Notes: generated by a model not told the origin, from the letters alone. Positions 2,219 through 23,984 are shown, counted from the first letter of the stretch. The stretch is DNA of 64,000 nucleotides from a virus (IMGVR_UViG_3300016471_001132:32001-96000); one strand, 5' to 3'. Made by a program: numbers and translations.

Positions 2219-2470
2219 CTAAGGTTGAGATTTCAATGAATGATATACTTCTGCTTGTTCTAGTAATTCTCTCAGCCGGGGATCGTTACGACTGGCTCTC
2301 AGTATTTCAATCCATTTGAACCAAAGCCTTTCATCCTCCATCTCCTGTCTTTTTTTGTCGGATATGGAATGGAGTGTTTTTTCTGTCGAGCCCGGTCTGC
2401 GCCGATAGACTGTTTCCCCGCCGTCAGGACTTTCGTAGATGTATTTTTCTTGTGTTTGGTTCACTTGCAT
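2219..2470 (-). CDS. Hypothetical phage protein
   Basis: 83 aa, YIYESPDGGETVYRR; overlaps the upstream ORF end. Confidence 0.75.
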   Translation of the reverse strand: MQVNQTQEKYIYESPDGGETVYRRRPGSTEKTLHSISDKKRQEMEDERLWFKWIEILRASRNDPRLRELLEQAEVYHSLKSQP

Positions 2471-3030
2471 CCTATGACCATGAATCTGGTATAAGGGGTT
2501 TCGGGATCTTGGAGATCCAATTCTCCTTGATACAAAACTTCCTGCATAGGGAATTTATCTAAGATATCCTGAGTGCTGTGAAATTGTTGGCCGGGGTCGT
2601 GGTCTCGGGCTTGTAGTGCTACTAGAGTACCCTCGGGTACATTGTCAAACCATTCACGTCCTGGCATGTCAGTGAGGCTGGTGTTGACCACTAGACCGTT
2701 CCGATCTAACTGTCTATAATCCAGATCATTAGCATCTGCTCGCATGTGATCCACGCAGGCGGCACCGATATGATCCAGCATGCGTTTACTCTGTTTCAGA
2801 AATTTGGGATTGGTTTCCACATTGATGATGCGCTCGGTCTTGACTGCAGGATGCAGCTTCATATATAGGCTGAGATTGCCAAACCATGATCCTAGAATGT
2901 ACACAGTGCTCACACGATCTTTTATTTTAGAAAGTTCTTGTAGCAACCAAAGTTTGCTCTTGGTAAGATCATGCGTAAAACTGCCCGGGAGGCTGTATCC
3001 GCTGCTTTCAGTGAGATCTCGGATCTTCAT
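2461..3030 (-). CDS. Class I SAM-methyltransferase-like protein with N-terminal tag
   Basis: VYILGSWFG (motif I-like), INVETN, DANDLDY, VVNTS; starts MKIRDLTE. Confidence 0.6.
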   Translation of the reverse strand: MKIRDLTESSGYSLPGSFTHDLTKSKLWLLQELSKIKDRVSTVYILGSWFGNLSLYMKLHPAVKTERIINVETNPKFLKQSKRMLDHIGAACVDHMRADANDLDYRQLDRNGLVVNTSLTDMPGREWFDNVPEGTLVALQARDHDPGQQFHSTQDILDKFPMQEVLYQGELDLQDPETPYTRFMVIGCK

Positions 3031-3094
3031 ACCGGGCTGAAGGGGTACCGGGCGCTGTCTGTGCCGTCATCCTCGGGCCATACAGGATATTCGT

Positions 3095-3379
3095 TCATAC
3101 ACCCGACGCGGCTATGGCCGCTCCATTGTTGAAACTTTGGCTCCAAGAGTTGGGATTCTTTCTTTTGCGTTTGTACCAGGCATAGCCAGCTCGATGTCCT
3201 GAACAATCCTTGGTGCAAGGGCTGCCGTGGAAAGATAATTCGTCTAGTTGCTCATCTTCGTTGTGTTTCTTCCTGCCTTGGCAATGAGCACGCTGGCTAA
3301 AGCCACGAGGCCGGGCACAGTTGATCGACCGTTTGTATTTTTCGGACCACTTTTCTGATACAAACTCTTTGGCTCTCAT
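3095..3379 (-). CDS. Small basic two-module protein, putative internal head protein
   Basis: Starts MRAKEFVSE; modules KWSEKYKRSINC..GFSQRAHC and CTKDCSGHRAGY joined by acidic NEDEQLDE. Confidence 0.7.
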   Translation of the reverse strand: MRAKEFVSEKWSEKYKRSINCARPRGFSQRAHCQGRKKHNEDEQLDELSFHGSPCTKDCSGHRAGYAWYKRKRKNPNSWSQSFNNGAAIAASGV

Positions 3380-3480
3380 GCCAATGCCAATCTCTTTTTC
3401 AGTTCATTGAGAGCTGCAGTCAATGATTCTGCCATGATCTGATACACAGTTTCTCCAACAGTGAAGGTATAGTTTTTCAT
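3376..3480 (-). CDS. 34-aa micro-ORF
   Basis: MKNYTFTVGETVYQIMAESLTAALNELKKRLALA; 4-nt start/stop overlaps with both neighbours. Confidence 0.55.
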   Translation of the reverse strand: MKNYTFTVGETVYQIMAESLTAALNELKKRLALA

Positions 3481-3737
3481 TTTTTCTTCGTCGCCACGTT
3501 GATGGCTGCTCCTTTTCTTTCTGGATTGGGATCTTGTCTACGCTTCCTTGCTGCTGCGGATGCTCGGCCTTTTTTGCCCAAGGCATGCGCTTTGCTTTGC
3601 GGCAGACACTTGGGTTTACCTTCCTTGCTGCTGCCACGGGCGCAAGGACCCATGATCTTGCCTTGGGGATTGAATCGTACCCATTTTTCACGGAACCATT
3701 TTTTTAGGTCTTCGGTGATGAATTCCTCAGCTCTCAT
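3477..3737 (-). CDS. Small basic protein, putative internal head protein
   Basis: Starts MRAEEFITE; KWFREKWV, PCAR, KPKCLP. Confidence 0.75.
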   Translation of the reverse strand: MRAEEFITEDLKKWFREKWVRFNPQGKIMGPCARGSSKEGKPKCLPQSKAHALGKKGRASAAARKRRQDPNPERKGAAINVATKKK

Positions 3738-5401
3738 TTTTTCTTTCCGCCGGTGCCCCAGTTTGCAGCACCTTTTTTACGGCATTGAACCAAAGCACCC
3801 GATGCGTAAGCGCTGGGCCATACTTTGTACCGGCTACGCACTTTGTGATAGCAGGCATCTTTGCCAGCCTCGTCGAGGATTATATTTTCATTTTCGTCGC
3901 GTCTGACAGCCAAACTCCGGGTCTCTCCCAGAGTGCCGGTCTTGGCCTGTGGTTGGAATGGCTCTTCTCCGTCCAGGGGAAGCTCTTTCTGCGGTCCTCG
4001 GCTGCGCCGACGGATATCTATCACATTAGATGGCACTGGTTCGGCAGTAGGCACAGATAGTGCAGTGGGTTCGGTTGATGGAGTGACCGTGGCAGCTGGA
4101 GCGATATCCAATTGAGGCTGGTCCAAAGGCAGTTGATCTCTGCTCTTGACAGAAGATTTTTTCGTGGCTGTTTTTTTCAGCGATGTTTTTTTGACTGCTG
4201 GTGCTGTGATTTGTGCCGCTGGTTGTCCTCCTACAGAAGGTCCTGCTGGTGCAGCAGTCACATCTGATCGTGGTTCAACAGCAGGTTCGATCTTGCTTGC
4301 TTGTTTGAGATCATTGATGGCTTTTTGTTGATCACGATCAACATCAAGGATCTTTTTTATCGCATCGCTTTGAGCTTGATTAGTGGCCTGTATTTGTTTG
4401 ACCATGGTGCTACTGGCACCTTTACGCCCTTGCAGTTGTGCCAGGCTTTTCCGGAGATCAGCTTTGACATCGGTTTCGAGATCGTCGATTTCACGCTCAA
4501 GCTTGTCTATATCTTGCTGATCTCGTTTGCGTTTGTCTTCTATATCGTAGGCCAAGGCTTCGATGTCACTGGTGGCCTGAGGCTGGCGTGCCCGTATCCG
4601 GGCGATCATTTTTTGGGTACGAGCAGTGGCATCGGCACCGCCGATCGACCCAGCAGCTACTTCACTCTTTTTTTTTACTTCGCTGGCTTCTCGGGTGTAC
4701 CGTGGTGCCTGGGTGCGGCTGCTTTGTCCGCCTAGGGCCACATCTCCGGATTGGCCTTCGAGTTGGTTCAGTAGATAATGTAAGCTATCGGGCTGTCCTA
4801 GGTTGAGCAAAAATTGTGGTAAAGCACCTTTTTTCTGATAACCAGCCGCCATCTGCAGTATTCGGTTTTTAACTTCAGGATCGTAAATCAAAAACTGCTC
4901 GTTGCTCATGTTGAAACGCAAAGGCCTACGGCTCATGCGTGCAAACTCTTTGTCTTTTTGCAGTACTGTCAGTATCAACGCGCCGCGATTTTCTGGGTTC
5001 ATTGAGGCAGGAACATCAACCTCTTGTTCGTCAAGAATTTCTTCTGATATAGGCTCGACCCGTCCATTGACAGTACGGGCATATTTTTCAGCCGACGCTT
5101 GATCTTGGAAAGCAGCGGTCGGCCGATTGGGCCTGGGATCGACGACCCGGTGTGTAAGTTTGGGTTGATTACCTTGCGGCTGTTGCGAAAGAGGCTCGAC
5201 TTGACCGCCTGTGCTCCGCGCATATGCATCAGCAGCAGCGCGATCCATGAACTGGCTGTTGCCCACTTGGAAGCGGAAGGCACCCTGGGGGCGCTCTTTT
5301 TCTACATCACGCATGGTGATATCGGGCTTGCCTTGCTGCCTACGGAGATAAGTGGGCATGTCGCTGGGTTTGAGTGCTTCAAAAATTTCGTCGAGGATCA
5401 T
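3734..5401 (-). CDS. Modular protein (coiled coil, low complexity, C-terminal DACYHKV module)
   Basis: 555 aa; starts MILDEIFE; duplicated AxxYARxxxGxVEP(L/I)S; ends ILDEAGKDACYHKVRSRYKVWPSAYASGALVQCRKK. Confidence 0.75.
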   Translation of the reverse strand: MILDEIFEALKPSDMPTYLRRQQGKPDITMRDVEKERPQGAFRFQVGNSQFMDRAAADAYARSTGGQVEPLSQQPQGNQPKLTHRVVDPRPNRPTAAFQDQASAEKYARTVNGRVEPISEEILDEQEVDVPASMNPENRGALILTVLQKDKEFARMSRRPLRFNMSNEQFLIYDPEVKNRILQMAAGYQKKGALPQFLLNLGQPDSLHYLLNQLEGQSGDVALGGQSSRTQAPRYTREASEVKKKSEVAAGSIGGADATARTQKMIARIRARQPQATSDIEALAYDIEDKRKRDQQDIDKLEREIDDLETDVKADLRKSLAQLQGRKGASSTMVKQIQATNQAQSDAIKKILDVDRDQQKAINDLKQASKIEPAVEPRSDVTAAPAGPSVGGQPAAQITAPAVKKTSLKKTATKKSSVKSRDQLPLDQPQLDIAPAATVTPSTEPTALSVPTAEPVPSNVIDIRRRSRGPQKELPLDGEEPFQPQAKTGTLGETRSLAVRRDENENIILDEAGKDACYHKVRSRYKVWPSAYASGALVQCRKKGAANWGTGGKKK

Positions 5402-6350: not shown

Positions 6351-6787
6351 TCTCTGTTCTCTTTGAGGTAAGCTTTCATCTGCCAGGCATATTTGCCATG
6401 GCTCTCTTGACGCTCGGCGGCGAAATTAGCGATGTCTTCACGACCTTCTTGGCTGGCAGCATCAAACAATTGTTTGCTGAGATCGATCATGGTCTGTGTA
6501 TCCGCCAAAAGTTCTGTGAGCATAAGCCGTGCCCGGGGAACTTTGATTTGTTCAGTGATCAAGCTGAGTTCTTGGAAACGCTGCAGGCTACCCGGTGCAT
6601 ATTCACCGGTGGTGCGGATGAATTCAGCAGTCTTGTCGATGCTGTCTTGAGTGTCTTCGTAGACCTTAGACAGGAATTTGTGTAATTCACCAAAGTTACT
6701 GCCCTCCACATTCCAATGGAATCCCCAGGCCTTGGTGAAATAGGCATAACTTGTGCCTAAAAATGTTTTGAGATCATCTACCAGCAT
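6347..6787 (-). CDS. dps: Dps/ferritin-like DNA-protection protein
   Basis: HWNVEG..F.ELH..L...Y....D..AE ferroxidase signature; 146 aa. Confidence 0.88.
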   Translation of the reverse strand: MLVDDLKTFLGTSYAYFTKAWGFHWNVEGSNFGELHKFLSKVYEDTQDSIDKTAEFIRTTGEYAPGSLQRFQELSLITEQIKVPRARLMLTELLADTQTMIDLSKQLFDAASQEGREDIANFAAERQESHGKYAWQMKAYLKENRE

Positions 6788-6953
6788 TGCGTTTCCGTTT
6801 CTTTCCTGATTTAAAACTATTCATATATTTAGCAGGCCCGCTCAAACCCTGCCGCGAGATCATAGTGCCCAGAGGTTGGATTACAGGCGCCATGCTGCCA
6901 GCTACACTGGCCCCGGCAGACGCATCTTCACGCATGAATTCTCGGGCTCTCAC
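6774..6953 (-). CDS. 59-aa tagged small protein (GTG start)
   Basis: GTG at 6953 gives MRAREFMREDASAGAS...; GTGA overlap with the upstream stop. Confidence 0.65.
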   Translation of the reverse strand: MRAREFMREDASAGASVAGSMAPVIQPLGTMISRQGLSGPAKYMNSFKSGKKRKRNAGR

Positions 6954-7237
6954 GGTCGTATCTCCAAAGTCTTTTTGTCCAACCAGGCAGCAGGACCACG
7001 GTCTATACGATGTCCACCTATGGTAAATTTGGCGATCTGTGGACCCACTGGTTCCACTCTGATCTGATATTGTCCCGGGGGTGCTGAAATCTGCAAGTGT
7101 TCTTCTAGATAACAATCAGGCCAACGGTAGGTGCGTTCGGCAAACATTTCGTCATTGACATAGATGCGATATACCGGATCTAGTCCTTCCCACTTGCAAT
7201 CTAGATTGAATACAGCCCTGACGAATACTGGTTCCAT
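6950..7237 (-). CDS. Hypothetical beta-rich protein
   Basis: 95 aa; TAAATA 4 nt upstream of ATG. Confidence 0.7.
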   Translation of the reverse strand: MEPVFVRAVFNLDCKWEGLDPVYRIYVNDEMFAERTYRWPDCYLEEHLQISAPPGQYQIRVEPVGPQIAKFTIGGHRIDRGPAAWLDKKTLEIRP

Positions 7238-7255
7238 CCAGTATTTATGTACTGT

Positions 7256-7450
7256 TTACTTGACTTCTTTGGGTTGTCCTACCAGCACATTGGGATTGAG
7301 ATACTGTGCCCGGATCACCCGCCTTGCCATTTCGGCATTGCGGGCCATCACAGTAGTGTCCATCTGCTGTGTATATCCTTTTTGCTGCAGTTTAAGCCTC
7401 ACTCGGTAGGTCTTGAGAGGTGGACGAGTTTGGAATTCCTGAGCTCGCAT
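7256..7450 (-). CDS. Small tagged protein
   Basis: Starts MRAQEFQT; 64 aa. Confidence 0.7.
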   Translation of the reverse strand: MRAQEFQTRPPLKTYRVRLKLQQKGYTQQMDTTVMARNAEMARRVIRAQYLNPNVLVGQPKEVK

Positions 7451-7451
7451 A

Positions 7452-8236: not shown

Positions 8237-8274
8237 TGCGTTAGGTGCTCCTATGCCAATATTTAGCCAAAACA

Positions 8275-8297
8275 AAGCCCGCCAAAGTGACGGGCTT
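8275..8297 (-). terminator. Rho-independent terminator
   Basis: AAGCCCG-9 nt-CGGGCTT stem followed by TGTTTT on the minus strand. Confidence 0.6.
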
Positions 8298-8317
8298 GTT
8301 ACGCAAATAGGCGTACT

Positions 8318-8818
8318 TTATTTGTTGGCCAAGGGATTGTCCAAGGCTTTCTTGATCTTGTCATCCACTTCTTTCCTGACTTCACGCAGCTCATTGCGGA
8401 CTTCTTTGACATCTTGCATGGTCTCTCGCTGTGTCTGCTTGGCACCACGCTCCACTGAATCCACTGTGTTTTCCAGCCTGCGTATATCGCCTTTGAGATC
8501 GTTCTTGATGTTGTTGGTGTACTCAGTGGCCTGCTCGGCCTGCTTGGTTATCACAGCCAGCCGCTTGTCAAATTCACTGAGATCTGGTGCCACATACTCG
8601 GCGATACGCTTCTTCATGCTGGTGTAGTCTTTGTAGACTTCAAAAGCACCATACAAGCCGCCCAAGATGGAACTTATGATGGTGGCTGCCACCATGAGTT
8701 TGGCCGGCGTGAACTCGTAGCCACCTATAGAGATCACTGTGTCCTTGCTGGCATACTTCTTGACCGCTGCATCCATGGCATCGATGTGCTTGTTTACATC
8801 TTTGATTTCTTCACCCAT
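8318..8818 (-). CDS. Single-TM coiled-coil protein
   Basis: LMVAATIISSILGGLYGAF followed by a long heptad region. Confidence 0.75.
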   Translation of the reverse strand: MGEEIKDVNKHIDAMDAAVKKYASKDTVISIGGYEFTPAKLMVAATIISSILGGLYGAFEVYKDYTSMKKRIAEYVAPDLSEFDKRLAVITKQAEQATEYTNNIKNDLKGDIRRLENTVDSVERGAKQTQRETMQDVKEVRNELREVRKEVDDKIKKALDNPLANK

Positions 8819-12713: not shown

Positions 12714-13373
12714 CTACTTATCATACGGAAGGAATCTAAATCCCATCTCAAATGGTGTTTTTCCAATGTGTTTCTCTTCGAGATACGCTTTGCTTCTACA
12801 TACGCTCAAAAGATTTATTGGAACATGATTGTTAGTAGTACAGAGTTTTATGATATAGTTGCCAGTGATCGATACTGGACAATGCTTGGCCGCTAATCTC
12901 GATGATTCATATTGTCCCCACGGCGTGAGAAAGTATCCACGAGCATTGGGATTATTTCTCCCCGTCTTTGATTGAGAATATCTCTGTTTGGCCAGTTCGC
13001 TGCGAGGAGGTTGTTGGCAACCTTTTTTCTTCTGGCTCACTATCTGTGCTAACTCTTGCCGTAGTTTTTCATAAAAACGAGATTGTTTGATGACATTGTG
13101 TCTATCTGCTTTGCCTCGACCTGTAAGATAGAACACAGACATCACCATCTTTTTACGGGCTTCATTTGTGGTCATACGGGTAAGCAAGAGATGGCAAACA
13201 AAGTGTTCTCTGGCTGTGAGATCTACAAGATTGGATGGACTATTATCGCCGCCTAAACTGCGAGGGATGATGTGATGTCGTTCAGTATAGCCTGCGATGG
13301 TTCTTGATCTTGCTCGATCAACGATGTTATTATACCAACGGCTGTATTTGTTTTGTAAATACACGGCTGACAT
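12714..13373 (-). mobile_element. Free-standing HNH homing endonuclease
   Basis: YTERHHIIPRSLGGDNSPSNLVDLTAREHFVCHLLL; basic C-terminal DNA-binding region. Confidence 0.88.
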
Positions 13374-13424: not shown

Positions 13425-13802
13425 TTACTTATCGCGGAACAAGCGATTTATCCGAGCGATAGGATCTTCTTCCGCAGTTTCTTCCAAGGCGGCTTCCGAC
13501 TTGAAATATTTTTTGCCGAGAGATACCACATGGTCATCGTTGGCTCTTCGGATGGCTTCCATGCTGTTTTCAGCCGAAGCAATATAGTCATAAACTTCTT
13601 GTTTGAATTTGGGGAAGTTGGGATGCCCTTCCATCTTTGTACCTGGTGATTTTTGATTCAACTGCCTGATGGTGGAAGCAGCGACCTCTTTTGGAGTAGT
13701 GCCTGCGTTGACACGATTTTTCAAGAATGAACCGATGATACCTTCCGCCACACCTTGCTCGGCGGATTCGATAAGATTGATGTATTCGCGAAGTGTTTTC
13801 AT
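13425..13802 (-). CDS. Tagged hypothetical protein
   Basis: Starts MKTLREYINLIESAEQGVAEG; TAAATA upstream. Confidence 0.75.
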   Translation of the reverse strand: MKTLREYINLIESAEQGVAEGIIGSFLKNRVNAGTTPKEVAASTIRQLNQKSPGTKMEGHPNFPKFKQEVYDYIASAENSMEAIRRANDDHVVSLGKKYFKSEAALEETAEEDPIARINRLFRDK

Positions 13803-13808
13803 AGTCTA

Positions 13809-15596
13809 TTATTTATCCTTCCTTGCTTTGCCACGCCGCATGTTGAGTTGCCATTGTGCCATCCTGCGACGCTCGCCTGTGCTGCTCTTGGCTATCTTTT
13901 CCAGTTGGCCCAGCGTGGCTTTCTTGGGTATGCCCACTCTGCGACTCAGACCCTTGCGGCCAGGTTTCTTGCCATCTGCGAAATTTTCATCCAATGATTG
14001 TTTTTTAGCATAACGATTGGCCCAATTTGTATAACCATTGAAAGTATCAAAGGTTCCTTGACGATCTCGTAAGAATCGTTGTTCGGGCTTGGGTATTTTC
14101 CACACAGCAATGGGTTTCATCACGCCATAGTTAACAACATTCATATATCTTTGCATGAGATATTGTAGTGTCTGTGGTTTAAGTTTACTGATCAACCATT
14201 TGCCAGCCATGGCTATGGTTTCAAAACTTACATTGGGTTTAGATAACTCTGCTTTAAGATCCTCGGGTATGCCTTGAATCAATGCCGACAAGTTAAGCGG
14301 AAGATTTTTTGCCTTAACAAATTTTTCTAGCAGTCTTCCTAATTCATCCTCATCTGGCGATGTTTGTGAAAGACTCTTACCTGAAAATTCAAACACATAA
14401 CCATAGGGTTCTTGTTTGATATAATCAGCATATTGTTCATCTGGAACATCGCTCATAAAACTATATCTCACAGCGTTGCCAAACTCTTTTGACAGATACA
14501 CTCCTGGCAACGGAGAAAAGTTTTTACTTCCTTTGTATTTTTGTGCAATTAGTTCGGGATCAAACTTCAACCCATTTCTCATGATTCCTTGAGCATTGCT
14601 CAAACTAGGAGTTCCGTGATAAAGTGTAGAGGATTGGACCGAAATTGGTGGGGGTGCCATTTCTTTGACCCGACCATCGGCGAAGTTTTCGCCCATTTCT
14701 GCCTCCCAGACCTCCTTGCCTTTCCAGTGCCGGCGGCCCGCATCAGTCTGATTAGCGTTGGGCACGATCCGGCCCAGTTGAGACTTGGCGAAATCATACA
14801 TCACACGGGCGATGCCTTGGCCACGATAGCGTTCATCCACCTGGAGTTCTTCGCCTTCCCAACCATGACCAGTGTCAGTGAAGTAACCGCTGCCTAACTC
14901 GCGTTCGCCCGTGCCATCCATGGCAGTGACATACAGGGTTTTACCATCATCAGAATATTCGTACTGGATGTTGAGACCATCTTGGCTGGCTCGGGCTTCC
15001 GCAACCACAGGCTCGTCCATGAAATCGCTCAAGGGATCCACTATCACGAGTTGTCCGTTGGCACGCTGCATGATGTTGGCCACATTGCCGAGATCGTACT
15101 CATATTTGTCTGCTCGGCCACTGCCATACAGTTGATCCACGGCCTGGACCAAGCCATCCACTTGTTGTGCTGTCAGTCCTGCGGGCACCTGATCCAAGTC
15201 GGGATATTCACCGCGACCCATCTTGGCCATGGCCTGTTCCAGATAGTCTAGTACTGCTTGGTCACCGGGCAAGGAATACAGTCGTTCTTGTGTGTACATA
15301 TAGTAGGTTTTGCCGTTCCAACGCAGGGTCTTGTCTACACCCACTCGGGGAAAGTGTGGATTGCGTTGATGCTCACGGAAGAAGTTGACATATCTACGCA
15401 CCACATCTTGTCTCACATCGCTGCCCTGTCCCACTATCTTCAACACGGTGCGGCTGCCGGGCTTGGACATCACGATCTGATCGCGACCTTCGCCGTCGAT
15501 CTCCCAGCCCCGATCGGTGAATCTTTCGATGAGATCAGGATCCACCGTGAGTTCACCGGCGGCATTGACTTCGGAGATGAAATCTCGGGCTCTCAT
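13809..15596 (-). CDS. Polyprotein: Ser/Thr kinase-like + GNAT acetyltransferase + ADP-ribosyltransferase + basic module
   Basis: Start MRARDFISE (ATGA overlap at 15593-15596); VLK..HFPRV..YDLGNVANIM..IVDP; LQVDERYRGQGIA; LYHGT..GL..GVYLS....AVRY..DEDE; ends ENFADGKKPGRKGL. Confidence 0.8.
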   Translation of the reverse strand: MRARDFISEVNAAGELTVDPDLIERFTDRGWEIDGEGRDQIVMSKPGSRTVLKIVGQGSDVRQDVVRRYVNFFREHQRNPHFPRVGVDKTLRWNGKTYYMYTQERLYSLPGDQAVLDYLEQAMAKMGRGEYPDLDQVPAGLTAQQVDGLVQAVDQLYGSGRADKYEYDLGNVANIMQRANGQLVIVDPLSDFMDEPVVAEARASQDGLNIQYEYSDDGKTLYVTAMDGTGERELGSGYFTDTGHGWEGEELQVDERYRGQGIARVMYDFAKSQLGRIVPNANQTDAGRRHWKGKEVWEAEMGENFADGRVKEMAPPPISVQSSTLYHGTPSLSNAQGIMRNGLKFDPELIAQKYKGSKNFSPLPGVYLSKEFGNAVRYSFMSDVPDEQYADYIKQEPYGYVFEFSGKSLSQTSPDEDELGRLLEKFVKAKNLPLNLSALIQGIPEDLKAELSKPNVSFETIAMAGKWLISKLKPQTLQYLMQRYMNVVNYGVMKPIAVWKIPKPEQRFLRDRQGTFDTFNGYTNWANRYAKKQSLDENFADGKKPGRKGLSRRVGIPKKATLGQLEKIAKSSTGERRRMAQWQLNMRRGKARKDK

Positions 15597-17047
15597 GCGG
15601 CCGCTCCGATCCAGGCGTTGATCTTGAATCCTTCGGGATTCAGCCGGAAAGCAGCCATAGTCCTGTGCCAACCTTCCACCAGTTCTAATCCGTTGGGGTG
15701 TTGCAACATGATCACTGGGGGGAGATTCTCCATGCCCTTGGCCTTGACTAATTCTATGGCCTGCTCCAAGCGTTCACGATCTCTGGGTATCATGAAGGGA
15801 TTTTTATTGCCAAAGTCTCGTTTGATCTTCATGCGATATCTAGTAGTAGGATCCAGCATATCGAAAGTCAAAGGCATCCGCTGCACCAACCGCCATTGAT
15901 CCGCCATGGTAGCCAACTCACGCACATGATCCAGTTTCAGTTCGAGATCCTGTGGTGACTTGATCTTGGATATCACCATATCTTTTAGCACATAGTCGGG
16001 CCAACCTGGTAATTCATCTCGCAGGATGTCCATGACACCACGCTGCACTTCTGTGATACCTGATCGCTTGCGTTCCCAAACAAATACGGTCATGTCTCCG
16101 GGCACGATCGTCAACTGCCACTGATCGCCCAGGATGTCTTGGATCACTGGCACGAAATATCGCTTGTACAGCTCGATGCGGCTGGCACCTTTGGCTGTAA
16201 ATGTGACCCGGGGTGGGCGTGCTGACTTCATGTACTGGGGTAACTGTTCGCGGACGATGTTCAGCACAGTGCTGAGGATGCGTATCACCGATCCACTGGC
16301 CTTTGTGGGCCGGGGTGGTGCTTCGTAGTTTTGATTCACTGTGAATGTGATCTGTAGGCTGTCATTGATAGGGCTGCGGTCAAAGAACACATCCACCCAT
16401 TGGCTGTCTACTGTGGCATGAAACAGGCTACGCCGCCTGCGACGATTGGGCTCATACTCGCTGGGTGAGTCACCTATCTCGTTCAGCGTACCCCTCACAC
16501 GATCAAAGAATGTGGGGTTGGGTGCACCCTTGACCTCGCCATGTCGTTTATGTTGTCCAGCATAGTCATAATAGCGACCCACCACATCAAACGCAGGCTC
16601 AAAGAACACTGCTTGTGGTGTGAGCCCACCTTTGAGTATGCCCACACGACGCTTGCCTGGGGGTGCGTCTCGGACCTCTCGAGGATCTCTATGCCCGATG
16701 GGCTGTAACCAAGCATCGGGTCGTTTCTTGACCAACCACACATAGGGAAAGTCCATGGCATATTCGCCCTGTGACATCATGCTGAGATAGGTTCGCAAGG
16801 GATAGAACCACAAAGCCCTGCGGCCACCTCCACGACTGCTTGTACCTATGCTCGAGACTGAGAAACTGGGATCATCGATTTCCACATGCCGCTTGAACTT
16901 CTGCCGATCGCTGAAACCTATTTTATCTACTTCGGTGAAACGCACGAAGTAGTCCCGGGGATCACCACCGTGTTGACGCACGGCATCCTGTATCTGTCCA
17001 CGGATGCTGGCCGCCTTACGCTCGGTGATGAATTCCTGTGCTCGCAT
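15593..17047 (-). CDS. Tagged multi-domain protein with C-terminal ParB/Srx-like domain
   Basis: Starts MRAQEFITE; C-terminal LPPVIML..GLELVEGWHRTMAA; two unassigned N-terminal domains. Confidence 0.7.
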   Translation of the reverse strand: MRAQEFITERKAASIRGQIQDAVRQHGGDPRDYFVRFTEVDKIGFSDRQKFKRHVEIDDPSFSVSSIGTSSRGGGRRALWFYPLRTYLSMMSQGEYAMDFPYVWLVKKRPDAWLQPIGHRDPREVRDAPPGKRRVGILKGGLTPQAVFFEPAFDVVGRYYDYAGQHKRHGEVKGAPNPTFFDRVRGTLNEIGDSPSEYEPNRRRRRSLFHATVDSQWVDVFFDRSPINDSLQITFTVNQNYEAPPRPTKASGSVIRILSTVLNIVREQLPQYMKSARPPRVTFTAKGASRIELYKRYFVPVIQDILGDQWQLTIVPGDMTVFVWERKRSGITEVQRGVMDILRDELPGWPDYVLKDMVISKIKSPQDLELKLDHVRELATMADQWRLVQRMPLTFDMLDPTTRYRMKIKRDFGNKNPFMIPRDRERLEQAIELVKAKGMENLPPVIMLQHPNGLELVEGWHRTMAAFRLNPEGFKINAWIGAAA

Positions 17048-17101: not shown

Positions 17102-17785
17102 TCACGAGTTAATCTGGTTCTGTACAATAAGGTCATGTGTTCTTTGGTTTAATTTAACTGTAAGAATCATAGAATAAACATGATTAGTAAAACTAAAAAC
17201 AGAATGTTCTCTTTGAAAGTTAACAAAATAAAAATATCCCGGATCAAAGTATGTAGGAACTCCCCCTAACATTTGAACAAAGTTTTCAGGTTTGCATTTT
17301 CCAAATACTGTAATTAATCTAATATATTCCGGACAAGCACCTACAAAGTCAACGTGTGGCGGAAAGTATCCGCCAGCGTCTAATTTTAGAAAATGTACTC
17401 TACCTATGTCAGGCTGAAACATATCAACTACGGGTTGTATCTGCGGCAATGCGTGATATACCTGCGTAGGTGTTGCAAAGTTCTCTTCCTTCATCTCAAT
17501 GTTGTGGTATTGTTGCATACCCCCAAAACTCTTAAGATGATAGTTATCCATTACATCTCCTGTATGACTAGTTATTGGGAGTCCCCATCTGGTACTATGT
17601 GTGTCTTCATTTTGACCTGGGGGCCGCTGTCCCCAGGACGGACTGTAAGGGCACCAGTTATTTTCAAATTGTGCAAGATCCTTTTCTAACTTAATGGGAT
17701 TAACAAACATTTTTAATTTAAAATATTCTCCCATATTAGCAAGGCTGTTGAACAACATGCCTCTTTCAAGCTCTTCGTATGTCAT
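17102..17785 (-). CDS. 2OG-Fe(II) oxygenase (Asp/Asn beta-hydroxylase-like)
   Basis: RVHFLKLDAGGYFPPHVD (HxD) ... REHSVF; locally AT-rich. Confidence 0.75.
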   Translation of the reverse strand: MTYEELERGMLFNSLANMGEYFKLKMFVNPIKLEKDLAQFENNWCPYSPSWGQRPPGQNEDTHSTRWGLPITSHTGDVMDNYHLKSFGGMQQYHNIEMKEENFATPTQVYHALPQIQPVVDMFQPDIGRVHFLKLDAGGYFPPHVDFVGACPEYIRLITVFGKCKPENFVQMLGGVPTYFDPGYFYFVNFQREHSVFSFTNHVYSMILTVKLNQRTHDLIVQNQINS

Positions 17786-17799
17786 TTAACTCTCTCTGA

Positions 17800-17867
17800 T
17801 AATATCTCATTAATTCTCATCTCTTCCAAACTTTGTTCTTGTAGGCCAGGAACTGCTTGAATTGTTC
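17800..17867. repeat. 68-bp direct repeat, copy A
   Basis: 62/68 identical to 18737-18804 by manual alignment. Confidence 0.9.
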
Positions 17868-17874
17868 TCGCATG

Positions 17875-18285
17875 CTAATCCTTGGAGACAGGTCCGCCTT
17901 CGACCCAAGCATCACAGGTGCGCTTGGCAGCACACTTGAATTTCAGGAACTTGCAGTAGCCCAACTGTCCAGCGTCGATGGTGTCGTGGGGATCACTTCC
18001 AGGTTCACTGCCGATGCCCTTGGCTATGCAATCCAGCATGTCGGGGCTGATGTCAAAGGCCGCACAGTTGCCGCAGCGATTCTGTTTCACTGATTCGATA
18101 TCGTCGGTGTTCCACTTGTCGGCCAACTTCTGCCAGTATTCTTCGTTGGGTTCGTTGGGATTGAGAGGACCATAATGATATTCGTCTATGGCCTTCTGGC
18201 GATTCTCCAGATTGAGATCGATGTTCTGCGTGGCGGGTGGGCAGCCTTTTTCGATGGCTTCCAATAGGTTGATTATGTCTCTCAT
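17875..18285 (-). CDS. Tagged Cys-rich protein (HiPIP-like 4-Cys pattern)
   Basis: Starts MRDIINLLE; RCGNCAAF...GYC......CAAKRTCDAW. Confidence 0.65.
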   Translation of the reverse strand: MRDIINLLEAIEKGCPPATQNIDLNLENRQKAIDEYHYGPLNPNEPNEEYWQKLADKWNTDDIESVKQNRCGNCAAFDISPDMLDCIAKGIGSEPGSDPHDTIDAGQLGYCKFLKFKCAAKRTCDAWVEGGPVSKD

Positions 18286-18286
18286 G

Positions 18287-18757
18287 TTATCCACCATGCA
18301 TGCCTTGCTTGATGATGTGTCGGAGATCGCCCAAGGCCTCTTCTTCAGTGTCATAGCCACTGTTGTCCTTGCCCGAAGCATAGTGCCGCATGTAGTATTG
18401 ACCAACACCGGCACTGGATTCTCTGTCGATACCGACTTCGCCCACGGGCTGGCCTTTGTGTTTGACGATCTTGCGTTGTTGATCGGCATGACCTTCCTGC
18501 ACAGGTTTGATTGGTCCACGCAAGGTATCTATGAGTTCACCCCCAAAATCGGGGTCTCTCATGATGGCACGCACCCGGATGTCGCTCATGCCCATGCGTA
18601 GGAGTTCACGAGCAGCATCACTGAGTATGTCATCTTCCGAGGCCTTCAGATAACTTTTACCAGGATTGTTGTCCAGCATGGCTCTGCTGACCTGATATAT
18701 GGTGTTGTCTTGGCCTTCCGCCACACCTTGTTCTACTAATATCTCGTTGATTCTCAT
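18287..18757 (-). CDS. Tagged two-module hypothetical protein
   Basis: Starts MRINEILVEQGVAEG; internal PVQEGHADQ linker. Confidence 0.75.
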   Translation of the reverse strand: MRINEILVEQGVAEGQDNTIYQVSRAMLDNNPGKSYLKASEDDILSDAARELLRMGMSDIRVRAIMRDPDFGGELIDTLRGPIKPVQEGHADQQRKIVKHKGQPVGEVGIDRESSAGVGQYYMRHYASGKDNSGYDTEEEALGDLRHIIKQGMHGG

Positions 18758-18804
18758 CTCTTCCACACTTTCTTCTTGTAGGCCAGGAACTGTTTGAACT
18801 GTTC
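18737..18804. repeat. 68-bp direct repeat, copy B
   Basis: Spans the junction of the 18754 and 18287 ORFs; 62/68 identical to 17800-17867. Confidence 0.9.
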
Positions 18805-19158
18805 CAGGGTTGATTCATACTTGGCCAGCATCTCGGCCATCTCACTATCGGTCCGGGGCACGGGCCAAGCACGGATCACATCCAAGTCTGCTTCGATGCC
18901 GGGATCCATGCCCAGTCTTGTGCGGCCGATGCGTTCGGCCGTTTTCTCTATCATGTTGGCCACTGCCAGGATTTTTTCCAGCCTGCGGATCTCTGCTTGT
19001 AATGTGGCCAAGTCCTTGCCAGGGGCAGCAGGCACAGGAGCCACTGATATCTGTGCCACTTGTTCGCCGGGCTGATTCATGGCCTGTTTGATCTGCGTGA
19101 GAGCAGCCATGGCTCGATCTGTCAGTGGTGCTTCTGTAAGTATTTCTTGTACTCTCAT
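18754..19158 (-). CDS. Tagged hypothetical helical protein
   Basis: Starts MRVQEILTE; TAATG overlap with the upstream giant ORF. Confidence 0.75.
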   Translation of the reverse strand: MRVQEILTEAPLTDRAMAALTQIKQAMNQPGEQVAQISVAPVPAAPGKDLATLQAEIRRLEKILAVANMIEKTAERIGRTRLGMDPGIEADLDVIRAWPVPRTDSEMAEMLAKYESTLEQFKQFLAYKKKVWKR

Positions 19159-22100
19159 TATCTCATCTCCGGCACTACTTCTGCTTCGTTGCCCAGCGTG
19201 CCTTGTCTATAACCTTGTTGTGCCAACCAGCGAGCAGCATATCTGTTGGCATCACTTTGCGAATTGCCTATGCCGTGGAATCTGGTAAGTTCACGCCCTT
19301 CAGCATCTCGCACGATCCAGTGGCCGGTCCACTCGCCCGGTGGCACATCAAGCCTGGCACGCACATCGTCAGCGTCTTGATTGTCATCTCTCTGCTGTTG
19401 GTTCTGTTGGCGTATGCGTTCCTGATCCATGCGATAGGTCTCGATCTCTTGTTGATCGGCCAGCCTGGCTCTGGCATCCTCATGACCAAAGTCGCTGTCT
19501 ATCATGGCGGCTTTTTGGATGGCTTCGGCTTGACTACGGGCCACGATGTTCTTTATCTTGCTGTGAAAGTTCACACGCCACAGTTGCTCGCCCACATCCC
19601 GGGTGCTGCGAGTCACACGCTTGGCCAACTCGGCTCTACGGCTGGGGGGTGCTTTGGGTTTTTTTGGTTCTTGGTGCACACGCACTTTCCACGTTGGATT
19701 CTGTGGTCTGAAGTTCGAATTGAAATATTTGATCGCTGCTTCGTCATCTTCGGCGTGGAATACACTGATCACGTTGCCAGATTCTGGGTCGTAGACATCA
19801 TAGTCTTTGTCGATGAAGGGAGGAATATCCTCTTCTTGCTCTGCATCCTGTTCGGCTCGCAGCACAGTTTCAGCCCACTGGCGCTTGAGTTCATCACCCG
19901 AGATGTAACCGGTGGAGTAGTCAGCGAACAATCGCATGAAAGGATCCTCGTCTTCGGTCTCGATACGGGTCTGGAATCTGGTATCCTTGGCACCTTTGGC
20001 TATCTCGGCACCTTTGTAGCCCGACAGCATTTTGTAGAGTTTCTTGGCATATTCTTTACGGTGCAGTTCGGGACTGCCGGCTATGCTCATGGCATAGGCC
20101 AAGCGTAACATGGTGTTTTCCAAGGTGCCTTCGATCTCGCTTTCTTTAGAGAGATAGTCTCCGCCAGGACCGCGGAACTCGATGTAGCCATCGTGTGGAT
20201 TCACGCTCACATACTTTTCGCCCAGCACACCACGCTGGAGTTCACGGTCGGCCAACTCGATGAGATTTTTCTTCATCAGTTCCATAACACCCGCGATCTG
20301 CTTGGGACCGGCTCTTTTCATGCTGGAGATCTTGTTTTGCAGTCGTTCGTAGGCGGACCGGGTGTAGTAGTTGCTGGCCCGGTCGAACTTGTCCAGCAGG
20401 TCCCGGTCGCCCATGAACAGGATCAGTTTGATGGGATCCACATCTCCGCCCTTGAACGGCAGACTCACGCCCATGTGCAGGCCGGTACTGCTGTTGGTAT
20501 AAGCATCACCGGAGCCATTGGCCCAGTCTATGACCTTGTTCAGTTGCTCGATGGCTTCAGGCAAGGGCATGGGAGGTGATACGATCTCCAAGCCGTAGTC
20601 TTCCGAGTCATCGGCATCCAGGCTGCCATCGGGTTCGATCACATAATAATCGCCACGACGGGTGCCGTGATAGCCCGAGCTCACACGCACATCCAGGCCA
20701 GTGGCACGCTCCAGGCTGTTGGCGATGTCCCGCCATTCACGCTCGCCACCATTGCCACCGCCTTCGGTCCAGTAGGGCCATTCCAGGCTCCACTCGTTGC
20801 TGACATCACTCATGTAGCGCATGCCCGAACTATCTAGCCAATCGGCTTGGTCGGCTTCGGCAGCATATTCGTCATAGAGTTCTTCCCTAGCACGGTCATA
20901 CCAGTCGCCACTGCGATCCCAATCACGCTCGGCATCGTCACGGAACAGTTGAACGGCCTGCTTTTCCAGTTCTTCATCTGAGATTTCTTCGTCGCCCAGG
21001 GCATCACGGGCCTGCTCTCGATATTCGTCGTCGACTTCGGGCCAGATGTTGTCATCGACCCAACTCATGTATCGATCCATGTCAAAGTAGTTTTCGATGA
21101 AACTGTCGTTGACCCAGTCATAGAACTGTTCAGTCAAATCTTGCGACAAGCGATCGGCCGCTCGGGCCGAAATACCATTGTCGCCGCCACGGAAGAAGTC
21201 GATGATTTCTTGGATGCTGGATGCACGCTCGTCCATGTCCCAGTCGGGCTCGCTCTCGCCACCGTCGCCGTCGTGCTGGGTGTCGCGGAATATGAGTTCG
21301 GCCTCGAAGCCAGCACGGATACCCTTGGCAGCATCACTGTTGAGGAATTTTTTGAACGCCGATGGACTCATCTCTACTTCCATGAGATCTTCATCTTCAG
21401 CAAGGCTTTCTACACTGAATGGACTCATATCTTCTACTGGAATAATTTTGGCTGTGATGGCAGGTTGTTTGGTCAGGATGGCTTTATGTGCCCTATGCGT
21501 TCCGTCAGCGATCCATAAACTACCATTCTTCCGTCGAACCACGATAATGGGATACTTGAGATCGGCTTTTGCCACTCGAGATTGCGATTGTGCAGGGTCT
21601 TCTTCGCGACCAACAATTTGGTCGTGGAACTGCGTAGGATCGACTTTTTCAGTTGGATATTTTGCAGCAAAATCTACTAAATCTTTTATGTTGAAACGGA
21701 ATGATTCGCCATCAATACCAATACCTGCAGTTTGATCCAGGCCAGATCCTTCCGACACTTTCACACAGTTGGGAACCTGGCGGTCGCCCTTCCGTTTCAT
21801 ACCTTGTTGTTTGTATCCTGACCAGCAATCTTCGTCGGTCTTGACGCTCTCTAATAGATTGTTCAACTTCTTCATCAGCAGCGGAGGAACACCAGCGGCG
21901 TCGGTCTTGAATCCCATCTTCCGAGCCTGGCGTTGGATCTCACCTGGTTTTATATCCTGCGTGATGGCCATGCTATATCTTGGATCTCGCGCTTCTCGGT
22001 CGTCGATGGGAATGTAGCCGGTGGCTTCGTTCACAGGCTGTTCACCAGCAGCACGGATGTCGGGTATGGGCAAGCGTGTGGGTTGATCAGTGTGACCACC

Positions 22101-23984
22101 TTGACGACGCAGCCAGTTATGGAACTCTTGCGCAAATTCAGCCTTGACATCAGGAGAACGAAGTTGACTGGCACCATAGATCCAGCGAGCGGCATTCAAG
22201 ATCTTGGCAGCAGTCACAGGCTCTTGTGGTTGTGCTGTAGGCTCTTGTGCCTGTACGAAACTGGCAGCAGCAGCGAACACAGCGGTCAACAAGGCTTTGG
22301 ACACTGCACCTTCGGCCACTTGGCCCTTCATCTTCATCACTGCCGCAAAGCTAGTCAGGAACTGCTGTTCGGCTTTGGAGAGAGGACGACCCATGCGGGC
22401 TTTGCCCTGTAAGAAGTCATAGTACTGTTTGATGTGCCGGGGATCTTGGCTTACAGGAGTCTGGATGGCTTCGTCTAGTTCACCGGCAAATATCTCAGGA
22501 TGATGCTCGCGGAAGTCACGCATGATGCGACCGGCTAGAGCGTTGGCCTCGTCTTCGAATCTGCTGCCAGTCTCACCACCATCGGCTGGAATACCTTCGC
22601 GCTCTTCTTGGTGATGATGCACCAGTTCGTGTGCTAATGTACGCATGACATCGGCCATGTGTCGTCCAGCCACACTGACTTCTAATGTATTATTGTCAGG
22701 ATCATAATGACCGAATGTGCCATTGACTTGGCTCCATTGTGGATCTCGGCGTATTTTGATTTTGGGACACGATTCGATTCCTAGTTTATCACAAACATAT
22801 TCTGTGAATTTTTGCAAGATAGACGCCGAGCTCTGCTGCTCGTCCATCCGGTATTCCGCTTCAGGATCTTTGTTCTTGGCTCGGCGATCTATATCCAGGG
22901 TCTTCATGCCCAAGCGGTCTAGATCCTTCTTGTACATGTGTTCGATAGGCTCGCTACCAAAACTCAGCACAGTTTGCGGAGCACCTTTGCCATAGGCCTT
23001 GGGGTCAGCATGTTTGAGATCGCTGATATCCTGTCCCAGTTTGTACCAATCATAAACATCACTTACATTGACCAATATTGTACCTGCTGGCATCTCGGGT
23101 TTGAACTCAGGTCCAGGTGGTTCAGCATTGGGATCATAATCTTCTTTCGTGCTTTCGCCACCACCATCACCACCGCCATCTGTGGCAGCATCACTACCAC
23201 CATAATAATGATAGCCTGGGAACCAGTAAGCACCATAGCCGTAACGGGTTTTCTTCTTTTTGGTTTTGCGCTCGTCAAGGCTCATCATCGAGTCTTTGGC
23301 TTCTTTTCTGGCATCACGTAGTTTTTCTAGTGTACCGTTGCCACGAAGTATTTTGAATGCTAGATTCTCCGGGCCAAACTCGCCAGTGGTCTCCAATCCA
23401 GCCTGCCGCATCTCTCGGATCTTGGCAGCCATTGCGTCCATCCGGCCAAGATCACCACTCTTGATGGCTTGTTCTATGCGTTGCCCTATGTCTTCGTATT
23501 TGCTCCGGACAGAGATATCATCCACTGTGGGCCGGCGGCGTGCAGGGACCTTGATCCAGTCATTGTTGAGGACCGAGTAGATGCCTTGGCTCACATGCGG
23601 CTGGTTGGCGTTTTGCACATACAGCTCTACATCGTAGCCGCCGATCTTGTAGTCGTGCTGATCGTTATATTGGTACTTTTTGGCATCAAAAAGCTCGCGG
23701 TAGACATCGCTGGCATCAGCTCGAGGTAGGTCTACCACCAGATGCAAATCGATGTCCGAATGTGGTGTATATGTGTAAGCAGCGTTTGATCCAGAGATCG
23801 TTATATCTTTGATCTCGAGATCGGTGATGCCCAGGCTTTCGCGGAAATCATCTGCTATCTGTAGAAGCTTTTGCCGCACTTCGGGCAAGAGATGTTCATC
23901 TGAACCCCACAGTCGGGGGTTCAGATTATCATTGAATTTTACAGCGTCGGAAAGACGATAGGTTTCTAACTCACGGAGGTCCAT
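19158..23984 (-). CDS. 1608-aa polyprotein: nucleotidyltransferase + HExxH metallopeptidase + ParB-like + putative amidoligase + small modules
   Basis: ISGSNA..SDIDLH (Pol-beta NTase); TLAHELVHH..EDEAN; YPIIV..IADGTHR; GFEAEL..GLEIVSPP..STGLHMG..YIEFRGPG. Confidence 0.8.
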   Translation of the reverse strand: MDLRELETYRLSDAVKFNDNLNPRLWGSDEHLLPEVRQKLLQIADDFRESLGITDLEIKDITISGSNAAYTYTPHSDIDLHLVVDLPRADASDVYRELFDAKKYQYNDQHDYKIGGYDVELYVQNANQPHVSQGIYSVLNNDWIKVPARRRPTVDDISVRSKYEDIGQRIEQAIKSGDLGRMDAMAAKIREMRQAGLETTGEFGPENLAFKILRGNGTLEKLRDARKEAKDSMMSLDERKTKKKKTRYGYGAYWFPGYHYYGGSDAATDGGGDGGGESTKEDYDPNAEPPGPEFKPEMPAGTILVNVSDVYDWYKLGQDISDLKHADPKAYGKGAPQTVLSFGSEPIEHMYKKDLDRLGMKTLDIDRRAKNKDPEAEYRMDEQQSSASILQKFTEYVCDKLGIESCPKIKIRRDPQWSQVNGTFGHYDPDNNTLEVSVAGRHMADVMRTLAHELVHHHQEEREGIPADGGETGSRFEDEANALAGRIMRDFREHHPEIFAGELDEAIQTPVSQDPRHIKQYYDFLQGKARMGRPLSKAEQQFLTSFAAVMKMKGQVAEGAVSKALLTAVFAAAASFVQAQEPTAQPQEPVTAAKILNAARWIYGASQLRSPDVKAEFAQEFHNWLRRQGGHTDQPTRLPIPDIRAAGEQPVNEATGYIPIDDREARDPRYSMAITQDIKPGEIQRQARKMGFKTDAAGVPPLLMKKLNNLLESVKTDEDCWSGYKQQGMKRKGDRQVPNCVKVSEGSGLDQTAGIGIDGESFRFNIKDLVDFAAKYPTEKVDPTQFHDQIVGREEDPAQSQSRVAKADLKYPIIVVRRKNGSLWIADGTHRAHKAILTKQPAITAKIIPVEDMSPFSVESLAEDEDLMEVEMSPSAFKKFLNSDAAKGIRAGFEAELIFRDTQHDGDGGESEPDWDMDERASSIQEIIDFFRGGDNGISARAADRLSQDLTEQFYDWVNDSFIENYFDMDRYMSWVDDNIWPEVDDEYREQARDALGDEEISDEELEKQAVQLFRDDAERDWDRSGDWYDRAREELYDEYAAEADQADWLDSSGMRYMSDVSNEWSLEWPYWTEGGGNGGEREWRDIANSLERATGLDVRVSSGYHGTRRGDYYVIEPDGSLDADDSEDYGLEIVSPPMPLPEAIEQLNKVIDWANGSGDAYTNSSTGLHMGVSLPFKGGDVDPIKLILFMGDRDLLDKFDRASNYYTRSAYERLQNKISSMKRAGPKQIAGVMELMKKNLIELADRELQRGVLGEKYVSVNPHDGYIEFRGPGGDYLSKESEIEGTLENTMLRLAYAMSIAGSPELHRKEYAKKLYKMLSGYKGAEIAKGAKDTRFQTRIETEDEDPFMRLFADYSTGYISGDELKRQWAETVLRAEQDAEQEEDIPPFIDKDYDVYDPESGNVISVFHAEDDEAAIKYFNSNFRPQNPTWKVRVHQEPKKPKAPPSRRAELAKRVTRSTRDVGEQLWRVNFHSKIKNIVARSQAEAIQKAAMIDSDFGHEDARARLADQQEIETYRMDQERIRQQNQQQRDDNQDADDVRARLDVPPGEWTGHWIVRDAEGRELTRFHGIGNSQSDANRYAARWLAQQGYRQGTLGNEAEVVPEMR

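Follow-up and report, generated by a model that had tools for sequence, protein, structure and literature searches.

The locus considered here raises the question of why a series of neighbouring genes in a virus, encoding proteins with unrelated mature parts, should open with nearly the same short peptide. The DNA studied, called the window below, is a stretch of 64,000 nucleotides (bases 32001-96000) of the 136,094-bp IMG/VR virus record IMGVR_UViG_3300016471_001132, also labelled G000, which carries nearly all of its genes on the minus strand and has a CheckV completeness of 39%. An initial annotation had described, in a block of about 22 kb, at least 14 unrelated open reading frames (ORFs) sharing an N-terminal tag that resembles the capsid-targeting sequence (CTS) of phage T4, and had interpreted them as an enzyme-rich set of head-packaged proteins far larger than that of T4. 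We observe a tag family supported by its statistics, selection on its peptide, a mosaic structure of the tagged genes and, in relatives, a head module of the T4 type. The shared N-terminus is probably this lineage's version of the T4 CTS, belonging to an expanded system of targeting and cleavage, the genes of which are shuffled at the tags.

Distribution and conservation of the leader

A weight matrix was trained on 38 distinct tags from related loci, to the exclusion of the record's own DNA, and applied to each of the 16,536 ATG, GTG and TTG positions in the six frames of the 136-kb record. Nine sites scored 15.9-31.5 bits, the best among the remaining 16,527 reaching 13.8 bits. All nine (17047, 3379, 3737, 15596, 18757, 17820, the GTG start at 6953, 19158 and 7450, in window coordinates; Table 1) are situated on the minus strand between 3379 and 19158, and the pattern of this strict family is MR[AIV]x[ED][FI][ILVM]xE. 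A plain regular expression gave ten six-frame matches in the record, seven of which are ORF starts inside the block. With the matrix, no strict tag was found outside the block in the whole 136 kb; thus, the initial statement that replication, tail and lysis genes lack the tag holds for its strict form. The top site outside the block, MQAVEFLDE at position 136050 of the record (minus strand, 13.8 bits), belongs to a 32-codon ORF 44 bases from the contig end.

With the tagged 484-aa protein and a tagged superoxide dismutase (SOD) as queries, we obtained related contigs of 197-347 kb. One of these, G008 (346,856 bp, terminal repeats, 100% complete), has 101 of 168 ORFs in common with the record at a mean amino-acid identity of 55%. 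The same matrix yields six first-start ATGs at 18.8-29.5 bits in G008, the next best site scoring 11.7. In five near-complete genomes a degenerate DNA pattern has 3-8 sites per genome (0 in the reversed control), and the related loci (n = 29) contain 54 tag matches, nearly all on first starts. At positions 247028-247782 of G008 (L141:7028-7782), distant from the main block, two adjacent small genes (123 and 128 aa) carry the full tags MRAHEFLIE and MRAREFLRE; a pair of tagged genes with the same spacing of ~370 bp is present in all five near-complete relatives. A near-identity search of the tagged block against GenBank phages gave zero matches.

The conserved Arg, Ala, Glu and Phe of the tag are coded by mixed synonyms (GCC/GCT/GCA/GCG, GAA/GAG, TTT/TTC, AGA/CGA/AAA). 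With the codons mixed and the peptide retained, it is the peptide and not the DNA that is under selection. Upstream of the tags no conservation of the DNA was observed among them, and many tagged genes are translationally coupled via ATGA overlaps. Past the first ~10 residues, all-against-all BLASTP revealed no significant similarity between the protein bodies, bearing out their description as unrelated. The short leader, in nine strict and three class-2 variants, is hence common to proteins with unrelated mature parts, and it ends in hydrophobic-x-Glu (ITE, VSE, MRE, ISE, LVE, LTE, LIE, LLE), the exception being 7450, without the Glu.

The class-2 leaders, with the core [ILV][ND]L[IL]E, are present at 13802, 18285 and 54794. 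This core has five six-frame occurrences in the record, and all three that fall in coding frames are situated at most 12 residues from the start. Orthologues of the 18285 protein (56-90% identity) begin with MRNFINLIE, MRDLLDILE or MRNYINLLE. The carrier at 54794 is an SOD with both domains present (Sod_Fe_N, 29.3 bits at a cut-off of 27; Sod_Fe_C, 73 bits at a cut-off of 20.9, 2.3e-20), whose gene has tail-fibre-like genes as neighbours. Since the Sod_Fe_N Pfam match begins at residue 20, the leader and the linker lie outside the SOD fold; the N-terminal extension carrying the leader comprises 16 residues. Leader and linker (MRxxI[DN]L[IVL]EASTRPAKLE, then TTPLPY) are kept in 80 relatives.

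Three other starts, 3030, 5401 and 23984, match only the relaxed pattern M...[ED]-hydrophobic. An enrichment check, proposed with the initial annotation, gave 8 of 21 block genes with this pattern vs. 1 of 134 outside (p = 2.5e-7, automatic gene calls). Genome-wide in G008 the pattern matches 20 of 422 ORFs, which is near chance, and therefore it is unusable for calling single genes. Orthologues of the 3030 protein have variable leaders of 5-12 residues ending in Glu ahead of a conserved body (MIVDELYSLEE/SSGY, the slash marking the border here and below, or MIAQEILTPLVE followed by the body), and orthologues of both 3030 and 23984 retain short variable leaders ending in hydrophobic-x-Glu. The 1608-aa protein, which starts at 23984, has orthologues beginning with M[ND][IL]xE[LI].

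All 15 starts quoted in the initial annotation are present, codon and peptide alike. As an observation the tag family stands, although its members are of unequal quality (nine strict, three class-2 and three loose), and the well-supported proteins number only 11-12 rather than at least 14. The start at 17820, taken for that of a cargo protein, opens a 12-codon mini-ORF instead, and the one at 7450 matches the start of the family but lacks the closing Glu. The block of ~22 kb is recovered in part: the strict tags are confined to 3.3-19.2 kb, but the block is not uniform, as 7.45-13.4 kb consists of untagged genes.

The T4 capsid-targeting sequence and the head module of relatives

In T4, a CTS is carried by Alt and by the internal proteins IPI, IPII and IPIII. 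The first 10 residues of IPIII are needed for head incorporation, and the tag packages foreign proteins to which it is fused; targeting depends on residues 4 and 7 and processing on residues 8 and 10 (PMC9026906). Cleavage after Glu by the prohead protease gp21 frees gp23, gp24, Alt and the internal proteins of their propeptides (PMC5694885). The leaders in the T4 genome (AF158101) are MKTYQEFIAE in IPII and IPIII, MAKINELLRE in gp24, MELITELFDE in Alt and MLKEQLIAE in gp22. The likeness noticed initially holds, as MRAQEFITE and MRINEILSE share with them the core QEFI-x-E or INE-L-x-E and the hydrophobic-x-Glu end. Common to both systems are also a short leader on unrelated proteins, loci variable between relatives (PMC9026906, PMC3012670), and small basic proteins together with a large enzyme resembling ADP-ribosyltransferases (ARTs) among the putative cargo. 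Several differences are seen as well. The consensus here, M-R-A-x-E-F-[ILV]-x-E, is one residue shorter and is accompanied by a second class, I-[ND]-L-[IL]-E; the carriers include a putatively polyvalent 1608-aa protein and an SOD; and there are in-frame fused cassettes with retained putative cleavage triplets and an extra QGVAEG/ENFADG motif. The carriers in the 64 kb number 11-12 vs. T4's handful. The set thus exceeds that of T4, as claimed, but is not huge: complete relatives carry 3-8 strict tags each.

The relatives carrying a head module in the T4 order are PA5oct/Rak2-like giants of 340-347 kb. In G001 and G008 the order is portal, a 73-aa protein, an acidic protein, a gp21-family protease, a scaffold-like protein and the capsid protein, as in T4, and a gp21-family protease in this order is present in G001, G007 and G008. 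The protease matches PF03420 (Peptidase_S77, 1.9e-23) and phrog_207 (4.5e-56), and is 34% identical to T4 gp21. The capsid protein of G001 belongs to the Gp23 family (PF07068, 4.6e-97) and shares 62-66% identity with the capsid proteins of Pseudomonas phage PA5oct, Cronobacter phage GAP32, Pectobacterium phage CBB and other Rak2-like giants. Head proteins of the relatives open with the same type of leader (MILNEIY.., MTNKFEQLIE.., MLDAIKPLLDSDLINEE.., MSQELLEG..DALLEG). In the capsid proteins of G001, G008 and PA5oct, [YF]L-x-E directly precedes NAS(A/S)G and the conserved core, which we take to be close to the position of FLTE in T4, where the mature part begins.

By the capsid protein, the Rak2/PA5oct-like phages (Arenbergviridae and relatives) are the closest cultured ones and have the same order of the head module, but PA5oct has about three strong tags and no comparable block. 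PA5oct, with a capsid protein at 66% identity, was taken as a weak proxy for packaging. Its GenBank record flags each protein detected in virions by mass spectrometry; the publication counts 93 of 461 (PMC7318152). Three PA5oct sites are outliers in the pre-specified matrix, and two of these bear the virion flag, namely gp150 (MKINDIITE), the 73-aa product encoded next after the portal, and gp238 (MKIKDILVE), both annotated as "structural protein". The third, MKIKEIILE, lies five codons inside EST35_0271 and is not virion-marked. The relaxed pattern finds 8 of ~24 in the virion vs. a base rate of 20%. A 6-residue regular expression gives 5 of 6 in the virion post hoc, and we do not rely on it because it was written after the list had been seen. 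Another cultured phage, Ralstonia phage RsoM2USA (MG752970.1, 343.8 kb), has seven raw DNA-level matches to the tag pattern, including MKVTEILFE and MNFKEFLNE (0 in the reversed control), and a homologue of part of the 1608-aa protein.

In phiKZ/SPN3US-like phages, similarly, many head proteins are cut after Glu by a T4-related prohead protease and a large mass of internal protein is delivered to the host (PMC5694885, PMC10052503). However, their sites are A/S/G-x-E, their propeptides mostly have ~100 residues or more, and these phages, which form a separate clade, are without a short common leader.

Mosaic genes, tag remnants and a linker motif

The 484-aa protein starting at 17047 joins in frame three cassettes, each of which is a fully tagged ORF of its own in related loci (L001, L002, L004, L026, L028, L029). 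Its gene has 419 bp in common with L001 (residues 190-329, 91% identity), the flanks being unrelated. Where cassettes 1 and 2 meet, this homology starts within the tag; between cassettes 2 and 3, homology to L002 starts at the I-T-E codons. In both junctions the [ED]F part is lost and the L/I-x-E triplet is retained, which is what the division of the T4 tag into targeting and processing residues predicts for a site that is still cut but no longer targeting.

The 1608-aa protein has an internal junction as well, and related ORFs matching the part downstream of it begin with ..DLFEINMSPS in L003 and L028 and with MKYLELKEQLLNEINMSP in L015. This protein and the 595-aa one string together disparate enzyme-like domains, as do the polyvalent proteins (Iyer et al. 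2017, PMC5512222), in which two or more disparate activities, typically with ParB, zincin peptidase or ART domains among them, share a polypeptide and for which packaging and injection along with the DNA are predicted; the differences are the T4-type leader and many single-domain tagged neighbours here, most domain calls being weak. The coincidence of domain borders with tag remnants suggests cutting by the head protease and not only by the protein's own peptidase.

A second motif, [GN][VFIL]A[ED]G (QGVAEG/ENFADG), is restricted to block proteins in G000, G001 and G008, none being found outside the block in 43,000, 63,000 and 109,000 residues, respectively. It is situated just after the tag or at domain borders, and may be a linker or a second cleavage site (V-A-E/G).

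Exchange of modules is also visible elsewhere in the block. The 595-aa protein shows mosaic homology to L001, L004 and L008, and its basic C-terminal module is 86% identical in L004, L005 and L008. The KWSEKYK..SINC module of the 3379 protein recurs in relatives, both after tags and within longer proteins. The reading frame at 3477..3737 is backed by phrog_23735 (7.7e-13) and phrog_727 (8e-14). Cys/Lys-rich modules at 3734-3900 and 3477-3737 (KVWPSAYASG..CRKKGA.NWG; KWVRF..G...G.C....PKCLP) match PHROGs 727, 3477, 38880 and 23735 and recur at the C-termini of differing proteins in relatives. Relatives of the 7450 body begin with MKQY.. and are untagged.

The orphan tag at 17820 seems to be left over from recombination: part of it lies in one copy of a 73-nt direct repeat, and orthologues of the adjoining 227-aa gene (17102-17785) are without an upstream tag. 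A programmed frameshift joining the orphan tag to this gene was set aside, as there is no slippery heptamer and the orthologues lack the tag.

Table 1. Coordinates of the tagged genes, tag remnants, repeats and linker motifs in the window (aa, amino acids; pI, isoelectric point)
Feature	Coordinates	Strand	Details
Loosely tagged 189-aa protein	2461..3030	-	MKIRDLTE
Small basic tagged protein, 94 aa	3095..3379	-	MRAKEFVSE; 27.8 bits; mature pI 9.9
Small basic tagged protein, 86 aa	3477..3737	-	MRAEEFITE; 25.1 bits; mature pI 11.2
Loosely tagged basic 555-aa protein	3734..5401	-	MILDEIFE; C-terminal KVWPSAYASG..CRKKGA.NWG; phrog_727 3.5e-20
Dps/ferritin-like gene, 146 aa	6347..6787	-	Ferritin PF00210 3.1e-18; no strict tag
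Tagged basic 59-aa peptide, GTG start	6774..6953	-	(M)RAREFMRE; 21.9 bits
Basic 64-aa protein, degenerate tag	7256..7450	-	MRAQEFQT (closing Glu absent); 15.9 bits
Class-2 tagged 125-aa protein	13425..13802	-	MKTLREYINLIE, then SAE-QGVAEG
QGVAEG/ENFADG-type motif sites	13740-13757, 18713-18730		In tagged-block proteins
Tagged multidomain 595-aa protein	13809..15596	-	MRARDFISE; 25.1 bits; basic C-terminal module
ENFADG linker motif, second copy, 595-aa protein	13971..13988	-	Ahead of basic C-terminal module
ENFADG linker motif, first copy, 595-aa protein	14673..14690	-	
Tagged 484-aa protein, three-cassette in-frame fusion	15593..17047	-	MRAQEFITE; 31.5 bits
Internal tag remnant GITE, cassettes 2/3 of 484-aa protein	16049..16060	-	Window RKRSGITE/VQRGVMDIL vs. 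L002 MRAQDFITE/VQRGVMDIL
Internal tag remnant TLNE, cassettes 1/2 of 484-aa protein	16478..16489	-	Window RVRGTLNE/IGDSPSEYE vs. L001 MRAGEFLRE/IGDRPSEYE
Orphan tag, 12-codon mini-ORF	17782..17820	-	MRINEILSERVK, then stop; 22.9 bits; TGA overlaps ATG of 227-aa gene at 17102-17785
73-nt direct repeat, copy 1	17795..17867	.	Covers tag and last 15 codons of upstream gene; contains orphan tag part
Class-2 tagged Cys-rich 136-aa protein	17875..18285	-	MRDIINLLE
Tagged 156-aa protein	18287..18757	-	MRINEILVE, QGVAEG directly after; 23.2 bits
73-nt direct repeat, copy 2	18732..18804	.	Copies 89% identical
Tagged 134-aa protein	18754..19158	-	MRVQEILTE; 19.9 bits
Putative polyvalent 1608-aa protein, loosely tagged	19158..23984	-	MDLRELE; NTase-like, HELVH zincin, ParB-like DGTHR and amidoligase regions
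Internal junction in 1608-aa protein	21372..21389	-	DLMEVE/MSPS; downstream part is a separate ORF in some relatives
Fe/Mn superoxide dismutase	54252..54794	-	Class-2 leader MREHIDLIE and linker ATTREKK before SOD fold

The untagged stretch at 7.45-13.4 kb includes three genes with signal peptides or a lipobox and one HNH endonuclease. The latter, at 12714-13373 (PF01844, E = 2e-4), separates two tagged sub-blocks and is possibly a mobile element. An 799-aa gene (8987-11386) has a signal peptide and no family match, with three tandem 66-nt units (66-70% identical) at 9927-10138. A strong terminator-like hairpin at 8297-8275 (minus strand; 10-bp stem, 6 GC pairs, T run), 3' of the gene 8318-8818, probably splits the block into two transcription units. 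A scan for consensus sigma-70-like promoters and terminators over 6.5-26.4 kb gave counts at chance level.

Putative cargo and alternative explanations

With the leader removed, the four smallest tagged proteins have a pI of 9.9-11.6, and the mature cargo has a pI of at least 8.7 in 8 of 14 cases, the genome median being 6.1; T4 internal proteins are likewise described as basic (PMC9026906). Pfam and PHROGs assign the tagged proteins mostly to no named family, and a PDB sequence search with three large proteins gave weak matches only. In the 1608-aa protein, Amidoligase_2 (1.6e-6) is above the cut-off, NTP_transf_2 and DUF6782 are weaker, and the conserved N-domain, resembling nucleotidyltransferases (NTases), matches phrog_36119 (2.4e-40); the protein fits the "polyvalent proteins" predicted to be injected with DNA (PMC5512222). 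For the 595-aa protein all matches are weak (Acetyltransf_7, E = 0.0031; phrog_15752 kinase, E = 0.0023; NleH kinase, E = 0.03). Its third region gives ADP-ribosyltransferase-clan leads only, from language-model features and structure; such an ART-like region would parallel T4 Alt. The description of the set as enzyme-rich relies mostly on weak domain matches: only SOD and Amidoligase_2 pass curated cut-offs, and NTase, DUF6782 zincin, ParB, GNAT, kinase and ART are leads, the first five being below-cut-off matches in the multidomain proteins, where HELVH and DGTHR motifs are seen.

The tagged 59-aa peptide at 6953 is always directly upstream of the untagged Dps-like gene, with a slight overlap. 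The pair is also present in G001 (7958/8164) and G008 (62030/62220), the peptide having the motif ..EDASxGxxSxGSIAPV.. and orthologues that start with ATG (MRAAEFVKEDASGGS, MRAQEFIKENASVGAT). It might tether Dps for packaging.

If the leader acts as in T4, then late in infection 9-12 amphipathic residues (M-R-A-x-E-F-[ILV]-x-E or x-I-[ND]-L-[IL]-E) would direct a protein to the scaffolding core inside the assembling prohead, the gp21-type protease would cut after the Glu of the hydrophobic-x-Glu triplet, and the mature protein would remain in the head with the DNA and exit with it at the next infection. The predicted cargo would comprise three groups: small very basic proteins similar to the T4 internal ones, multidomain enzymes similar to Alt or polyvalent proteins, and the SOD. 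The block genes are exchanged and fused at the tags; as the fused cassettes keep only I/L-x-E and the second motif marks linkers, the long proteins would probably be cut into domains inside the head. By analogy with T4, targeting, cleavage, packaging and delivery of the tagged proteins are what we infer. The initial interpretation as head-packaged cargo is thereby supported in part, by the T4 likeness and the protease of the lineage, but with fewer carriers than claimed.

Several observations weigh against such a role. A gp21-type protease, the search for which had been suggested initially, a Gp23 capsid gene and other head genes were not found on the 39%-complete fragment, though the protease is present in relatives with the T4-ordered head module; hence, the head-gene part of the argument is borrowed from relatives at ~55% amino-acid identity. 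The T4 late promoter TATAAATA does not occur in the window. A 181-kDa protein and an oligomeric SOD would be large cargo, although T4 accommodates the 682-aa Alt in its head. Three of the claimed tags (3030, 5401 and 23984) are too loose for individual judgement. In PA5oct, two other pre-specified patterns have only 1 of 3 and 2 of 4 matches in the virion, so this proxy is consistent with packaging, but it is definition-dependent and too small to decide. Finally, a ClpP homologue is encoded in the record, with ClpX, ClpS and ClpA in relatives.

The Clp genes favour an improbable alternative, in which the tag addresses proteins to another machine (the phage Clp chaperone-protease or another chaperone) or times their degradation. 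N-terminal recognition motifs are known for ClpX. However, both the sequence of the tag and its hydrophobic-x-Glu ending match the T4 leaders, the same type of leader is found on the core-position protein beside the portal, with Phi-L-x-E before the capsid core, and the fusion junctions retain precisely the protease-site part, which a degradation tag does not predict. Somewhat less improbable, yet still unlikely, is that the leader is a head-protease propeptide or an assembly handle of virion-structural, decoration, tail or baseplate proteins rather than of free injected cargo. T4 has this kind of leader on the structural gp24 and on core proteins, the best PA5oct matches are annotated merely as structural, and the SOD gene lies among tail-fibre-like genes. 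Against this, the cargo resembles enzymes and small basic DNA-binding-like proteins and not structural repeats, its domain content suits polyvalent proteins predicted to be injected (PMC5512222), and between relatives the block is a hypervariable mosaic, which structural genes are not.

The mosaic structure itself could be read differently, the shared starts being functionless recombination scars or a translation-initiation cassette copied with the shuffled genes. The tags do coincide with cassette borders, the 73-nt repeat covers a tag plus the end of the gene upstream, position 17820 carries an orphan tag, and ATGA coupling is frequent. We consider this explanation very improbable, as synonymous codons vary freely with the peptide kept, the DNA upstream of the tags is not conserved, and the peptide is conserved across relatives at ~55% identity and, on the core gene SOD, in 80 contigs.

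Given that the shared N-terminus is probably a CTS of the T4 kind, a bolder and rather doubtful extension is that the tags are dual-purpose elements of a plug-and-play effector system, the peptide being a prohead address and a cut mark, and its ~27 nt of DNA serving as crossover points between cassettes. Crossovers at the tag DNA would then swap, duplicate and fuse cassettes between phages, the fused polyproteins would be cut to single effectors in the head at I/L-x-E sites and QGVAE/G, and delivered SOD, perhaps with Dps brought by its small tagged partner, would protect the incoming genome.

In the literature we found no paper on such leaders in this clade or the Rak2-PA5oct group, and the idea is anticipated by the T4 literature (PMC9026906); what is distinctive here is the fusion junctions, the linker motif and the tagged SOD. 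The fused cassettes, which keep the triplet alone, allow the T4 rule to be tested in nature, namely that the leader targets by its first half and is cut at its last triplet. In PA5oct and other cultured relatives, the nine-residue leader might be tried as a handle for packaging, and RsoM2USA is a possible experimental system. Should the tags act as they do in T4, the injected protein set would be readable from sequence for a large uncultured group of freshwater giant phages (~220 related contigs, genomes of ~345 kb). Kinase-, acetyltransferase- and ADP-ribosyltransferase-like enzymes, ParB-like and peptidase domains, small DNA-binding-like proteins and SOD would then be delivered at the first moment of infection.

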